This document shows, piece by piece, positions 35,401 through 43,600 of a stretch of DNA of 64,000 nucleotides. The notes beneath the pieces are model-generated. The model did not search any database and was not told the DNA's origin. It saw only the letters and a program-made list of their open reading frames with translations. The translations under genes and the position numbers were made by a program. Location: assembly GCA_010015585.1 (NCBI GenBank), contig ML975157.1. The stretch is one strand, 5' to 3'. Source of the DNA: Eremomyces bilateralis CBS 781.70 (Eukaryota). Each line of letters begins with the position of its first letter. Position 1 is the stretch's first letter.

Positions 35401-36392
35401 CTACGGCTTGGAATCCGGCATGTCGAACAGCTCCGTTAGCTCAGTGCTGGAATCAATCAAGCGATCTTCACGACAGTCATTATGAGCTGTGTGTCTGCTA
35501 CTGAACTTAGATTCCGCCTGCCTCTTAAGACCCTCCTCCCGCTTTCTTCGACGCCTTTCCTCCTGTCCCTCGGCTGCTACCTGATTCTGAGCATTATGAT
35601 TTGAGCCAAGGCGACCGTTCCGAAACAGCCCCTGTGAGAATCTTTCGATCCTTTTTGAATTTTCCGCAAAGCGTTTCTCGGAGACTAGTGCTATGCAATT
35701 GAGGTAGCTTTCATCCACCAAGGTGAAGAGTTCACCAGTGTCTGGTTCCTCGAAGCCGATGATCGAGTCAAGGCTCAACCCTGCTGAGCGAACGGCTACA
35801 ATAGGCATATAAGTCCCATCCGGTTGCGGATTAAGGGTGGCAATGCCGCTCTCTCGAAAGCCGGCCTGCAAGGCAGACGACGTGACGGACTCGGCATGCT
35901 CTAGCGATGCTGCGAGAACATGAAGGATCTATTTCTCGAATTAGTAGAGTCGCAACCTAGGAAAGCATAGGTATCCTGCCAACATACAAAGGGTTCGAAT
36001 TTGAAATGTATGAGTTTATGAGATTGCGGTAAGACCTTAGGGGGTTCTTTCCCATGCGATAGTTTCAAAAACGTGTGAAAATCGTCAACTTTGGGGAGTG
36101 TGCTGAAGGGGCAATGAGAGACAAATAACCATCTGCCACCCCCTTTCCCGCCGGAGTAATTGGAAACTGTGCCAGCGTCGGCAGTCGAAGGAGTCCGTCT
36201 ACCTTCGAGGAATACGCTTACACGGCCGGAGCAGCTGCTCGTAGTAACCAGCCCCGAAGACTTATTGATGTTTGAAATCAATTCCCGAATCTCCGCGTCT
36301 ATAGACCCTTTGGGGGATAGGTCGGAGTACTCATTTGGAGGCTTATCAAGTTCCTGGAGAATCAGGCTTTTTTTCTGCTCGAAAAGTCCCAT
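35401..36392 (-). CDS. TYW3: tRNA wybutosine-synthesis methyltransferase Tyw3 (2 exons)
   Basis: DLSPKGSID, TTSSCSGR, FKFEPF|ILHV, AGFRESG and VAVRS motifs. Confidence 0.92.
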
Positions 36393-36916
36393 GATTGGAT
36401 CTGGCACGCTTTATCTCCTGCGCGGTTTCGATAACTGATGGTGAGTGAAAATATATCCAAGTACGCGATTTTCGCGTTCGGCCTCTGCTTGGTTGCCAAG
36501 TGTTAATGAAGCCAATTCGGAGTTGATGACTGCGGCGGGAACTGTGAGGGTGGTGCAGCAACAAGAAGTCTGGCGATTCTTGGTTACAGGTAGAGTTTCG
36601 ATATATCTGCGCCAGGACTTTGGCGAATTCTGGTGGAAGTGTGCTGGTGAAATAGGGAATTGTTGCACTAATTAATATCATATTCTCAGGCGGGCTATGG
36701 ATACCTGGCCAAAGCGTCTATCACAGGTATCCAATCGGTATCACTCAATGACGACTTCACCTCCTTTACATGAGTACTGACTTCTTTACGGAATACCCAT
36801 CTGCACTTTATCTTCTCTTACTCGCGATTCGAGCGAACCAATCATTTAAACTAATATATTCTGGCTACGGATTGGATACTTTCACACGACGCGTATGTTG
36901 GATATCTGGACACAGC

Positions 36917-39900
36917 ATGGCCCGGAGGACAACTATGAAACCGAGCCTTGGAAAGGCCCAACCGAAAAGAGATTTGGATGATCCCACTGGCGCAACTTCC
37001 CTGCCGAAGCGACCGAAAAGAAGTTCAACGACGCTGACCAAGAGCAAATATTTCGAGAGCGAGGATGCAGGGGAAGAATCGACGGACAGTCTATCGTCGG
37101 AGGCCAAGGACGAGCCCGGGTATGAAGATGATTCTGCACAATCAGAGTTGTCGGACGAGCCCGAAGACTCGGATTTTTCGGAAGAAATCGAAGCCCCCAG
37201 CAGAAATGTTCGCAAAGGCCAGAGTAACAAGCAACCGGCTGCAATAAAGAATGCTCGCAGCAAGCAAGACCTGGGGAAGTCAGGGGCGAAGACCGGGTTG
37301 GGTCCTGGAACGCAGGTCATCATGAAGAAACCAAAGGCCAGAGATCCTGGGGATACACCCTATTCAAACGACATTATTCATCCAAATACGATGCTGTTCC
37401 TCCGAGACCTGAAGCAGAATAATAGTCGGCAATGGTTGAAATGTGGGTCATCCCTATGTCTTTACTCACCCTCCATGACCTTCTCCCACTACATCCTTTT
37501 CCAAAACACACTATCGAATCTCTGCTGCTCTAGCTTTATGGTCACTATTGAACGTGACTAGATCCGAGCACGGAGGCACTTCTCACAGATTGGAAAGCAG
37601 CTGGCATGCAACTACCGAAAGAAAATCACTTGTCGCGATAGGGGATAAATCTTTCCTGTCTTACGCACAACTGACAGGAGCCTACTAGCGAATGATCCCG
37701 ATTATCGAACATCCTGGAACGATTGGTTGACTTACTGCGAAAGCCTGACTGAGCGAATCGCTGAGGTAGACGACACGATCCCTGAGCTCCCAGTCAAAGA
37801 TCTCGTAAGACGCCGATCATTGTAACATCATCGGATCAGCCAAGACTAATAGGACAAGGTCTTCCGTATTTATCGAGATGTACGGTTCTCGAAAGATCAG
37901 TCTCCTTACAAGGTCAGAAATCAGAGTGTCTTGGTCTGAGGAGAAGCTAATTGCAAGCGTAGACTGCATTTTCCGCTGCATGGTAAGAAATTCTAGCAAG
38001 TTGCAGTTGGTCGTGTTAGTTCCTATGCTCATCTGGATCTCAGGTCTCGTACCGGGAGAAAGGGTCCATATGCGGCATACTATGTTGAGGTCAGCCCCGG
38101 AAATAGTTTTGTCGGTAAGTCGAATCTTGATTGTTCCCTTATTCAGGCAGGCCCAAGGATCATGGTTTCATTCTCGGGTCGCTATTCCGAGGTCTTCGAT
38201 CAAAACTTCCATCGCGAGGCCATGAAGGGGTATTATTGAGCCTACCAGTGAAGGTAGCGGATGTTCCATCATCCCCCTAACCTCAACGACATTGAGAGGG
38301 GCATAATTTGGCCCTTCTCATGAGAATCTCCGCCTCCCATCAAAGCTCTTGGCTGCAACTCGAGGAGATTCACATCACTATAAAGCGTTCTGTCTTTTAG
38401 CTGGGCGTCTTTGGCGCTTAACTCCCACGATTGGGCCGCCCAAGGTGCTCTGGACGAGCATTGTCGACCCAAAATCAGTGATCGCGAGGAACCGTTTGGA
38501 CTGAGAAGCGTGTATTCCGACACCGAACTTGTGATCCATCAGAGGGGATGGCAGACCGATGCAGCGTACCAACAGATCAACAATGTTGAAAACCGATGCA
38601 TCATCGCTCTAGTACCAAGCTCATGAGCCAAACCCTCATGGCAACCCGATTAAGGCCATGGCGAGTCCCGTTCGCCTCTGCACGGAATACATGGTCGATG
38701 TCGCGGGTCGGTTGCCACGAACTTTTGCACCGTGGTGGATCCGTAGCAAGTCTTCCACCGGAACGACGTCGATGATTGGGAATCCGAACGAATACATAAG
38801 CCTGAGGATATTGTGGATTTTTATCTGAGGCCCCCTCCCTTGTTCTATGCGGATATATGTTCGAGATACGGAGGATGTGATTGCAAGGCGTCCTAGGAGC
38901 ATCGCAGGAGTCAAATCAGTGGCTTACCATTACCAATCGAGTGACGGCATCCGGCACTCCTTGGCGACCTTGATAAATGGCTCGCCAACTGTTAAAAATC
39001 AATGAGACTAAGAGCCTCCAGCTAACATAAACTCGCAGCTGGAGGGTTGTGGATGCCCGAACCTGGACCACTGGCAGCTCTGCGACGCGACGTTGATCGA
39101 AGACCGAACCGGATCAAGACGGTGCTTCGCGATGCTCGATTCCGAAAAGAGTTCCTTAAAGGCCCTCCGAACGATGATAAGAATATCATCAAAGCCTTCG
39201 CGGCGGCCAACACCGAGGGCGCACTGAAGACAAAACCTAAGGTTAGTCGCATTTCTTCGGGAGTCAGGCGGTGCTTGCATTGTTGCTTTTGATTAGCTCC
39301 GGTCAATGCTTTCTATGGGTTCGCTGGAAGGACCAAGTACTACATGATTTCACCACTGTTGCCCATCGGGATATCGTCGTCTACATTCACTCCGTTGGCG
39401 GGTGATGCTATTGGGAAAAGCGTTCCAGAGAAGTGAAACAAGGGAGTAGGAACCTTATATTCACGGACATTTCTGGACTGACGAAGCAAATCCCTTGGGG
39501 CTATTGAGAATCGAGTTTAGTGCCTTTGGTGATGGAAGAACTTCTAACTGGTTTGCACCATACGGTGCGGTCACAACCAGCCGGGTGCTTGGAACTTTCC
39601 AACAATGCCATTTCCCGGGCAGTACCTCGACAGTTATCTTGACACACCTCTAGATCCTCATTAAGATTGTGTGAAACACACGAAGGACGGTGGTGAGACT
39701 GGAGTTTCGGTGGAACGCGCAGATATCATGGATCCAAACAGTGTCTCTAGGGGCGCAGCACACTTGACAGTGCGGTCAAGGATTGTTCTCGACTATCGAT
39801 CCATTCTTGACATCGCGCAGTGGGATCGTATATGACTAGACGCTCCGAAGGCGCCTAGCTCTCCATCCTACACATACTCAAACCCTCCGAGAGCTCGTGT

Positions 39901-40661
39901 GGTCCGATGAACACTTTTCTTACGAAGCTACAAGACAACTCCCGAAGATTGCTTTTGATATCACAAGATTGAACCATTGGAGATACTGACGGGTAATTGC
40001 AGGGCTATAACAACGACCATCCAGACCTTGAATTGCTTCGCTTGCGTTCCTACACCGTCGGGAAGCGGATACCCGACGGAGACGTCAACTTGGACAGCAT
40101 GACGGAGCTGATTTCGTCCCTAGTACCATTTGTACGTATCCTCGATCTCCCAACAATACACCCGGTGCATGTGCCCTTGTCGAGGATTACACAGCTCAGT
40201 CTCAATGCGTGTGCACACTGTTCGACGGAGCCGTGTAACCTTAAAACGCGGAGATGCAGCATGTTGGGCGAGGTCATTTGAAGCGGCTGCTGTGTCTCCC
40301 GGGGATGCTGCCCTACGATGTCGAAGCCCGTTATCCCCGTTGCTGCGGCACCCTTGCTTCGACAGATGCGTTGGCTCTGCTTTCGCCAGAACGTTGCTGG
40401 CGAGCGGCGTCGTGCGAATCGGCTGGATGAAGGCTCGGCGGCAAAGCAAGCGAGGCCAACGCATCAGTTCCCTAATCCGGAGTCCGGAGTCGTGCAGCAC
40501 ACACACCCCGCATTCAATACGCGACCTTTTGAACCCAACCAAGACGACACAGGCAGGCTAATGATGAGGTTATTTGATAGATCACATACTTGAACAGCGT
40601 TGTCATGCCTGATGGTGTGGATGAGGAGGAAGATTCCGATGACATGGATGACGAGGGTTGA
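36917..40661 (+). CDS. DUF2461 (TIGR02453-family) protein with acidic/basic disordered N-terminus; 8 exons: 36917-37442, 37689-37804, 37859-37912, 37963-37982, 38044-38114, 39039-39241, 40003-40131, 40581-40661
   Basis: Phase-consistent splicing gives TMLFLRDLKQNNSRQWLK..PELPVKDL|VFRIYRDVRFSKDQSPYK|TAFSAAWSRTGRKGPYAAYYVEV..SFVAGGLWMPE..ALRRDVD..LKTKPK|GYNNDHPDLELLRLRSY..VPF|ITYLNSVVMPD. These are the DUF2461 signature blocks (NNxxWL, FRIYRDVRFSKDxxPYK, GGLW). Confidence 0.88.
37499..37672 (+). ncRNA. Candidate intronic structured RNA, H/ACA-snoRNA-like, in DUF2461 intron 1
   Basis: Hairpin ttccaa(37499)/ttggaa(37590) with a large internal loop and upper stems, an ANANNA match aaagca (37594-37599), a second hairpin gatagggga/ttcctgtc, then ACA at 37667. 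No target identified. Confidence 0.35.
38115..39038 (+). ncRNA. 924-nt highly structured intron; candidate large ncRNA or cis-regulatory RNA
   Basis: Many short helices seen by eye, e.g. 38161-38169/38216-38224, 38324-38331/38364-38371, 38734-38739/38754-38759 and 38961-38967/38982-38988. Confidence 0.4.
39242..40002 (+). ncRNA. 761-nt structured intron closed by an 11-bp long-range stem; candidate ncRNA
   Basis: tcttcgggagt (39254-39264) is the exact reverse complement of actcccgaaga (39938-39948). Several internal hairpins. Confidence 0.45.
40132..40580 (+). ncRNA. 449-nt structured intron; candidate ncRNA
   Basis: Perfect helices 40319-40327/40356-40364 (9 bp), 40365-40375/40455-40465 (11 bp) and 40290-40296/40546-40552 (7 bp). 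Confidence 0.45.
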
Positions 40662-43600
40662 GTCGGCCAGGACAGAAATAGCTACCACCTCCAACTTTTT
40701 GGATCTGCTCGTCAGCGTTGGGCGTGGCAGAATATAGCGTTCAAATTTCTATCTATCATTGAACAGTTTGCTTCTACCCATCCCACTTCAGTTACAAGCC
40801 ACAACCCGACTACATCAACCTCAAGGCTCAACGGCAGCCAGTCTCAGGAAGCAGGGCATACCAAGAATATTCATATTATTGGGAGAAGTGCTTCCGGTGA
40901 AAGAAAGTCGGTCAGCGACGGCGATCCGGGCAGCATCGGGTGACCATGAGTCGGCAGCGCCTAGACAACGGCTTCACTTTCAGCGTTCAGGATAGCCCCA
41001 ACAACTACTATCGAGAAGATTGCAGAAACGATGGATGATGGAAGAGGTGATTTGCCCTGTGCCACGTCAATCAATGCATGCATCCCCTGTAGGTGTCGGG
41101 AGTCCACGCAGTATATTGAGTACTCGAACGGAACGAGGTGGCAGCGCCGTGCTGTACATATTCATTATTCAGTGATATATCCAGTGACATATTCCATAAT
41201 TAACTTCCATTGTTATCGGGATGAGTGAGGCGTGAGAGCATGGGACGCCAATCTCAGGTCGCAGGCTCACAGCGTCTCACCCATTTTTCCGGATTTTTTT
41301 CTGGGGACGAGTTCGAATTAGCTCGACGGGAAGGTCACGTGCTTGATCCCGCCTGCATGCATCGACCCGTCCCGGTTGTTGTCCAGTTTGCCCACACGAC
41401 ACGGAAACGAGGGAGCCAGTCAGAAGCCGCCGACAACTTCTCCCTGTCAGCTGGGCGAGACAGCGCTAGGAAGATGCAGATGAAAAGTCATGGATTGAGA
41501 GTCATGGACGTGGACAAGGATCAGCGCGTGGTGGGTGTCTCCAGTTTACAGCGCCGAATACCACCGGAGCAGAGACATTCTGTTTTACAGGCTAGGGCCC
41601 GCCGGCGACATCCCGCACAGGGCGATTTGGTGTAGTGGCCCTGCACCGATAGTAGTCCCTAGATTAGGGGTATTTAGCACTCGAAACCGAGCCAGTCCGA
41701 CATCTCACCGTCAGCGCCACCTAGCAACTTCCACCCCCGCTGTCAGCTCACTGCTCAGTGCTCACATCTGTCTTAGTCTCATAGCTCGTCTCCATCAGCC
41801 TTTTGCCGCTTCTGCCGATCCTGCCCGATTCCTTGCAGAGCTGGACCTTTCGGCTTTGGAGTTGGGCAGTTGGATCACTCCACACTGGGACTGGGTCCAG
41901 AATTTGGAACATTGGAACACTGGGACATCCGCTGCTGGCCTGCTGCCGTACTATGCCGCCTGCCGCGTACCGCCCGCCTCCCGCCGTCCACAGCCCAGTA
42001 TCCGCCGTCCCGCTCTACGCCAACTCTCCTGTTCATTCCGAAGAGACAGGGAAACCGACATGGTGATTCTTGCTGGTCTCGGGGACCTTAGTCAACAGTC
42101 TTTTCGCGTTGAGTCCTGCACTCGGGCTGGAGTTGGGATTTTGGATGCGCTGTGTAAAACCTGGTACTTTCACGAGGGAAATTGAGGGAAATTGAGCGGC
42201 GTCCTGTCCAAAACGTGCGCCAATGGGAATTATTGAGTCGGGTTTCTTGCAGATTGCTGATCTCTCTCTCGCTCTCGCCTTCCGTCATCAGGAGGGGGAG
42301 CTTTACCCGCGACGTGCATCGCATCCGCAATCCCGCATGCATTCATTGCATTGTGAGCGTCTACGCGGCGCAATCCCCGTTCATGGCGCCCGTTCCACGG
42401 TTACACAAACCAAGCTCAACACCCTCGTCAATATCAATGTGTTTTCCCTACTTCAGGAACTTAGAATCGACTCATTCGAGCATTTGATCCAACTGATGGG
42501 GTGTGGTCGACCGTTGTCCAGCATCGCGACACGGCCGAGCCCAGTCGAGGTGTCTGGAGCAATCCTGTTGGAAGTCCGAACTTACCAGTGCCTGATTATC
42601 CCGATTTATACGAATCTCAAGGGTGTATCAAGGGTACCTCGGGCGGTCGATGGACCGGGCCGCGCCCGCCAGAAATAAATAGAACTTGGAGCCTCGGACG
42701 GACGATGACACGAGGAATTACCAGTCCGGTCCTCCTCTCATTTCTTCCTTCCCCTTGCTCAGGAATTATAGTTTGGATGCTCTGCTCACTTCTGGCTGCC
42801 GCTGAGCGGTGCTACACTGGCTAGCGCCAGGGACTGATGCAAGACCATACAGCATACGGAGGATCCGTATGTGATGGGATACGTCCATGGCCTCCCCCGG
42901 GCCCAATCCAGAGCTCCGTGCCACCGTTAATTCTTCTGATGCTGTGCCGCAACCGGACGATTGCGATATGCGAAGCGCATCGCCTCAATCACAAAGGGAT
43001 GTTAGTTTCTGTCCCGCACTAACGGTTCGACCAGAAGCAAGCCATGGAAAATAGATTAACAGCCTCTTGAGTCTTGTTGCCACTCGATGCTTGTGGAACG
43101 ACACCCTTGGCTACAGCGGGTTGACGTCGCAGCCTCCAAATTGAGCCTGGTCGACCTAATAAAATGACTACTTATCTACAGAAACATGGTATGCAGATAG
43201 TATGTACTATTCTTGGTACGTATCGCATTTTCGTTTCGTGTTTGTGACTCCGAACGGTCGAGACTCTGCCCTTGATTGACTAGGTCAAGCGGGTGACAAC
43301 GACTGTCGACTCTCGAAGTCTCGAGATAGGATATCTTTCTGTGCCTGTTTCTGCTCTGACACTGTCTGTTCGCACCTATCATAGCCTTCATCATACGGAC
43401 ACGGTATAATAGAAGTGTTAGCAGGCGGATGGAGGCTATGCGGGATGTAAGCCTTCATTGCTTTGCCCTGATGTGATTCCAGGTTTCACCTAAGACTCCA
43501 TCCAGTGCTCTCTACAAGGACTGGACCTCCATGCATACAGGGCTTGCGAGTTGCAAAAGTCCCACAGCGTAAGATTAAATTCATGCAATCCTTCAAATGC

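Follow-up and report, generated by a model that had tools for sequence, protein, structure and literature searches.

An 11-Base-Pair Stem Joining the Ends of a Long Intron in a DUF2461 Gene of Eremomyces bilateralis: A Possible Zipper Stem

Introduction

In filamentous ascomycetes, introns are recognized across the intron, and nearly all of them are very short. To our knowledge, the splicing of the rare introns of several hundred bases in these fungi has not been worked out. This question is raised by a stretch of 64,000 nucleotides (nt) of contig ML975157.1 from Eremomyces bilateralis CBS 781.70 (assembly GCA_010015585.1), referred to here as the window. The window contains a gene of the DUF2461 family, whose coding sequence spans 36917..40661 on the plus strand; all features described below lie on this strand. 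The sixth intron of the gene (39242..40002) is 761 nt long, and its two ends can be joined by an exact stem of 11 base pairs (bp). In this study, the position, predicted stability, and rarity of the stem were investigated, together with the content of the loop that it closes.

A possible model is provided by yeast. Zipper stems are described for the long introns of RPS17B, RPL7A/B, RPS6B, and APE2 of Saccharomyces cerevisiae (PMC2536676, PMC12350175, PMC12311795). The zipper stem is presented as established for RPS17B and then extended to other long yeast introns in the corresponding part of Rogic et al. (2008, PMC2536676). In the literature passages retrieved, the term "zipper stem" was used only for S. 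cerevisiae, apart from a suggestion concerning Yarrowia (PMC2911113); none of these passages dealt with filamentous fungi.

The results suggest that the 11-bp helix of intron 6 may be a zipper stem like those of long S. cerevisiae introns and may aid the splicing of this oversized intron. The probability of this reading is put at about 0.45, slightly below even odds.

Identification of Intron 6 and Its Closing Stem

Intron 6 is a real, spliced intron, because the contigs of run X3 carry its GT..AG joint at the borders of the gene model. The joint runs from 39241 to 40003 and skips 761 nt, which bears out the intron borders proposed in a first-pass annotation made from the sequence. The RNA label of X3 is only a guess; the contigs nonetheless carry all seven spliced joints of the gene, each of them GT..AG and located at the model borders. 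Intron 6 is in phase 0, with the donor GTTAGT and the acceptor CAG at 40000-40002. A branch site TACTGAC was read at 39984..39990, with its branch A at 39989, 13 nt 5' of the acceptor G. It is the sole CTRAY motif within the final 70 nt of the intron.

The 5' arm of the stem, TCTTCGGGAGT, is located at 39254..39264 (intron bases 13-23), and the 3' arm, ACTCCCGAAGA, is located at 39938..39948 (intron bases 697-707). The two arms are 100% complementary over 11 nt and enclose a loop of 673 nt. The first-pass annotation had described an exact 11-bp stem beginning 12 nt after the donor with a loop of about 670 nt, and all of these values were recovered: 12 nt lie between the donor and the 5' arm. 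From the end of the 3' arm, the distance to CTGAC (39986-39990) is 37 nt, and that to the branch A is 40 nt.

The predicted free energy (dG) of the 11-bp duplex was -18.4 kcal/mol. The helix, including the 5' arm, is paired in both the minimum free energy (MFE) structure and the centroid structure of intron 6. When intron 6 was folded alone, the pair probabilities were 0.70-1.00, whether the splice signals were held open or not. An outward extension of 3 bp is possible, in which GCA at 39249..39251 pairs with TGC at 39950-39952 across a small internal loop. This extension is also present in the MFE and centroid structures and lowers the dG to -21.4 kcal/mol. Its distance from the donor is below 10 nt, and it may hence be sterically excluded under the yeast rules.

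Removal of the stem-loop would leave 12 + 54 = 66 nt of intron 6. The short introns of the same gene, introns 2, 3, and 4, are 54, 50, and 61 nt long, respectively. The earlier proposal that the stem shrinks the effective intron therefore fits the anatomy, with 66 nt left and the zipper positions respected. Its second part, that the stem delimits a discrete RNA module of about 670 nt, is not supported, as described below for the loop.

On this basis, a mechanism can be outlined. Once transcribed, the 3' arm would pair with the 5' arm, so that 673 nt are looped out. [quoted passage not shown] U1 at the donor and branch-point binding protein/U2 at TACTGAC could then meet across intron 6 as they would across a short one. 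The CTGAC decoy at 39478, located in the loop, would stay out of play. The formation of the helix in vivo and its benefit to splicing are what we infer.

Comparison with Zipper Stems of Long Yeast Introns

The criteria for zipper stems were taken from the relevant part of Rangan et al. (2025, PMC12350175). [quoted passage not shown] Helix formation with dimethyl sulfate (DMS) support and a helix confidence of at least 70% is also specified there. In intron 6, 12 nt precede the 5' arm, 40 nt separate the 3' arm from the branch point, the total linker is 52 nt, and the helix consists of 11 bp with zero bulges.

The arrangement of intron 6 is thus similar to that of the S. cerevisiae introns as the cited texts describe them. 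[quoted passage not shown] The stem of intron 6 would likewise loop out most of a long intron and shorten the distance to the branch point. The branch site TACTGAC is yeast-like, and every published positional limit holds for intron 6.

There are also clear differences. The gene belongs to a filamentous ascomycete, in which introns normally measure about 50-60 nt. The 673-nt loop exceeds most yeast introns in length. The stem is a single perfect 11-mer without an imperfect continuation, and its helix is a predicted one. Moreover, two sibling long introns in the DUF2461 gene have no such stem.

These two introns, intron 5 (38115..39038, 924 nt) and intron 7 (40132..40580, 449 nt), were used as comparators; both are supported by X3 joints. 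In intron 5, the longest end stem was 7 nt, and merely 4 bp with a dG of 0 were found under the yeast rules. In intron 7, the longest end stem was 6 nt, and none was found under the yeast rules. Neither intron has a zipper-type stem. Intron 1 (246 nt) is also spliced without one, which, together with introns 5 and 7, counts against the proposal. A stem of this kind is therefore not a general need in E. bilateralis, because introns 1, 5, and 7 splice without one.

The unspliced share of the three longest introns was estimated from X3 as our own ratio of contig depths, which are a poor measure. For intron 5, the unspliced word depth was 44.4 and that of the spliced joint was 86.7, giving an unspliced share of about 34%. 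The corresponding values were 20.1, 107, and about 16% for intron 6, and 78.1, 138, and about 36% for intron 7. Taken literally, these values mean that the stem-bearing intron 6 was unspliced about half as often as the stem-less introns 5 and 7. This lower share is a weak hint only, because contig depths measure poorly. Introns 5, 6, and 7 all also occur as unspliced contigs in X3, and the middle of intron 1 has no X3 contig.

Rarity of the Stem

The rarity of the stem was investigated with an end-window test, in which one arm of a perfect stem of at least 11 bp was sought within the first 5-80 nt and the other within the segment 20-150 nt from the 3' end. With dinucleotide shuffles, a match was obtained in 6 of 5000 (0.0012 per intron). 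With real 761-nt segments of the window, 64 of 18,070 matched (0.35%; 0.0035), and these 64 segments trace to 4 distinct repeat pairs, the pair of intron 6 among them. Under the yeast positional limits, the chance was about 4e-4 by our own arithmetic (about 1,500 allowed position pairs). Shuffles of intron 6 were also folded under the yeast positional rules with the splice signals open. Some zipper of at least 6 bp was found in 6 of 40, and a dG of -18.4 kcal/mol was reached in 0 of 40.

These values have to be weighed against the possibility of a chance inverted repeat, whose pairing would have no effect on splicing. Per 64 kb, about 20 exact 11-mers would be expected, and such a repeat would be one of these. 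In the whole window, 16 exact inverted repeats of at least 11 nt with loops of 150-1500 nt were seen vs. about 20 expected, the latter value being our own arithmetic (64,000 x 1,351 x 4^-11). Exact 11-mers at such spacing occur at the chance rate, and the repeat, unremarkable as such, is therefore special solely through its placement, and that only moderately. The 4 distinct pairs found at similar spacing agree with this.

Further results weigh against a zipper stem. When imperfect stems were allowed, 4 of 200 shuffles of the four long introns of the gene reached a dG of -18.4 kcal/mol or lower. When the four long introns of this gene and any others elsewhere are taken into account, the corrected significance is marginal, at roughly a few per cent. 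Complementarity breaks off sharply at either end of the 11-mer. [quoted passage not shown] The ends of any long RNA approach each other in predicted folds. RNAduplex on long end windows gave scores as good as that of intron 6 for 17% of 11,498 real segments; this measure tolerates huge internal loops and is not discriminating.

The chance explanation is the chief alternative and could quite possibly be correct. It is in line with the sharp ends of the complementarity, the splicing of the other three long introns of the gene without a stem, the ordinary structure of the loop interior, and the sensitivity of the predicted helix to its context, the last two of which are described below. The case was also singled out after many introns had been scanned. 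The placement probabilities given above (0.0012, 0.0035, and about 4e-4) speak against chance, and both the 66-nt residual intron and the lower unspliced share suit a function. If the repeat is a chance one, intron 6 is simply oversized.

Effect of Flanking Exons on the Predicted Helix

The effect of the flanking sequence on the predicted helix was investigated with flanks of different lengths. The mean helix probability fell from 0.96 with 30-nt flanks to 0.68 with 100-nt flanks and to 0.11 with full exons, which does not favor a zipper stem. The competing structure is a local hairpin in which the exon 6 segment CTGAAGA (39224..39230) would pair with 39254-39260, the initial 7 nt of the 5' arm. 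The donor then lies in the 23-nt loop of this hairpin. In folds with full exons, the local exon 6 hairpin had a probability of 0.64 vs. 0.11 for the long-range stem, a further point against the proposal. When each structure was forced in turn, the MFEs with full exons were -329.6 kcal/mol for the local and -329.3 kcal/mol for the long-range pairing, a gap of 0.3 kcal/mol.

The hairpin also allows a more elaborate version of the zipper reading, in which the 5' arm would act as a timed switch. Right after its transcription, the 5' arm would pair with CTGAAGA, and this hairpin would hold the donor. The 11-bp partner, which is the stronger one, would follow about 680 nt later, displace the hairpin, and free the donor beside the only correct branch site, so that the decoys in the loop (CTGAC at 39478 and TAG at 39518-39520) would never be used. 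This version is regarded as improbable. If it were true and general, intron-defining filamentous fungi would tolerate rare very long introns only with a zipper, or with a zipper plus a delay device.

Analysis of the Looped-Out Segment

The interior of the loop was investigated for structure beyond the closing stem. The MFE of intron 6 was -235.1 kcal/mol (z -0.27); shuffles gave -232.6 +/- 9.5 kcal/mol, and 7 of 20 had folds at least as stable. In 27 sliding windows of 100 nt, z ranged from -1.81 to +1.65 with a mean of +0.2. Nested hairpins had been reported for the loop in the first-pass annotation. They are readable in the sequence, but the intron as a whole folds at the chance level.

A discrete, stable intronic RNA of about 670 nt with a function of its own, either with a snoRNA-like host stem or as a stable intronic sequence RNA, was also considered. 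RNA-derived contigs cover the whole of intron 6, and the closing stem could in principle shield an excised RNA. A short helix closing an intronic element is likewise seen in intron-encoded small nucleolar RNAs (snoRNAs) with external stems. Unlike these, intron 6 has no box motifs and no Rfam match, its loop is 673 nt long, and a processed RNA is not in evidence in the X3 contigs. The loop is several times larger than a usual snoRNA. No Rfam family matched 36000-42000 on either strand at E <= 1, no transfer RNA was found by the transfer RNA scan, and intron 6 contains no C box (RUGAUGA / TGATGA).

An ACA triplet beside the 3' arm had been likened to gcACAact in intron 1. This likeness did not survive closer inspection: the triplet is one of 21 ACA triplets in intron 6, and the "ACAact" of intron 1 is merely the front of the branch site aACTGAC. 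The triplet belongs to the loop, on the 5' side of the 3' arm, and its position does not suit an H/ACA box, as it is not 3 nt from an RNA 3' end. Neither a known snoRNA family nor C/D or H/ACA architecture was found for intron 6.

The only form of intron 6 RNA in X3 was one unspliced contig running from exon to exon (39213-40030). This contig represents unspliced pre-mRNA, and its depth was 20.1 vs. 115.5 and 194.3 for the flanking exon contigs; contigs carry no information on RNA ends. Beyond the closing stem, an RNA module of about 670 nt is unsupported, because no excess structure (local or global), Rfam match, transfer RNA, TGATGA, Pfam relic, or second copy was found. A separate RNA is considered very improbable.

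A decoy CTGAC at 39478-39482, followed by TAG at 39518-39520, is located within the looped-out part and could serve as a branch site and an acceptor. No joint to this TAG is among the joints listed for X3, and no nested or alternative joints are listed.

Origin of the Excess Length

The arms bracket exactly the excess length of the intron, and 66 nt remain. This would also be expected if an element of about 695 bp with 11-bp terminal inverted repeats, such as a miniature inverted-repeat transposable element (MITE), a foldback element, or an introner-like element, had been inserted in a former intron of about 66 nt. Such an insertion would perhaps have been tolerated since its ends zip the RNA. 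Fungal introner-like elements (PMC3609843) and Hypoxylaceae sister (stw)introns (PMC8469720) are described with inverted repeats or stable structures. Like intron 6, they are spliceosomal introns of filamentous fungi in which complementary ends bring the donor and acceptor regions together. These systems, as described there, consist of multi-copy similar introns of about 90-210 nt with imperfect repeats of 45-55 nt. By contrast, intron 6 has a length of 761 nt and a repeat of 11 nt, and a second copy was not seen in the window.

Several results make an insertion relic rather unlikely. No target-site duplication was found beyond a trivial TT (flanks ..gcatt / ttgct..). BLAST of each long intron against the 64-kb window matched only the intron itself, and the arm 11-mer had no further exact copy. 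The 23 stop-to-stop open reading frames of introns 5-7 contained no transposase or other Pfam relic; 3 sub-threshold matches had E values of 0.015-0.09. The overall fold is not stable (z -0.27), unlike that of introner-like elements, and the G+C content of intron 6 is 0.49, similar to that of its surroundings. Intron 6 thus shows neither terminal repeats with a target-site duplication nor a stable fold.

Structure of the DUF2461 Gene

The gene consists of 8 exons and 399 codons, and the frame is open in the joined model. Exons 1-4 are located at 36917-37442, 37689-37804, 37859-37912, and 37963-37982, and exons 5-8 at 38044-38114, 39039-39241, 40003-40131, and 40581-40661. Single translated exons matched PF09365 (DUF2461) collinearly at profile positions 1-19, 21-57, 108-157, and 159-194; the match of exon 6 had an E value of 7.8e-07. 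The long introns are 1, 5, 6, and 7 (246, 924, 761, and 449 nt, respectively). The three longest of them adjoin one another in the 3' half of the gene (38115-40580).

Intron 7 has a G+C content of 0.57. Over 145 codons (40120-40561), neither strand contains a stop codon, and neither reading matches Pfam. In the window as a whole, 337 open reading frames of at least 75 amino acids were listed; the exons beside long introns may be too small to be recognized in this way.

Another inverted repeat was found nearby. It is an exact 13-bp repeat between 38191-38203 in intron 5, 77-89 nt after the donor, and 39093-39105 in exon 6, 55 nt after the acceptor. Its pairing would place 889 nt in a loop that contains the branch site and the 3' splice site of intron 5. 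This repeat may be meaningless; by our own arithmetic, chance would produce about 1.3 13-mers of this kind in the window.

The exon 6 peptide was also used in a metagenome scan. Seven loci (L001-L007) were found, which are distant DUF2461 genes on short contigs with 29-42% identity over 38-52 residues. Among the contigs of X4 and X5 (organism B), none matched the locus at 80% likeness, and no sequence variants were found between X1 and X3.

Conclusions

The exact placement of a perfect 11-bp helix in a verified 761-nt intron is consistent with a zipper stem that would bring the donor and the branch site of intron 6 together. If this is true, the zipper-stem principle of yeast would extend to the Pezizomycotina. 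The DUF2461 gene would then also provide a clean, mutable test case, in which the helix is perfect, the intron is verified, and the two long introns lacking a stem serve as internal controls.

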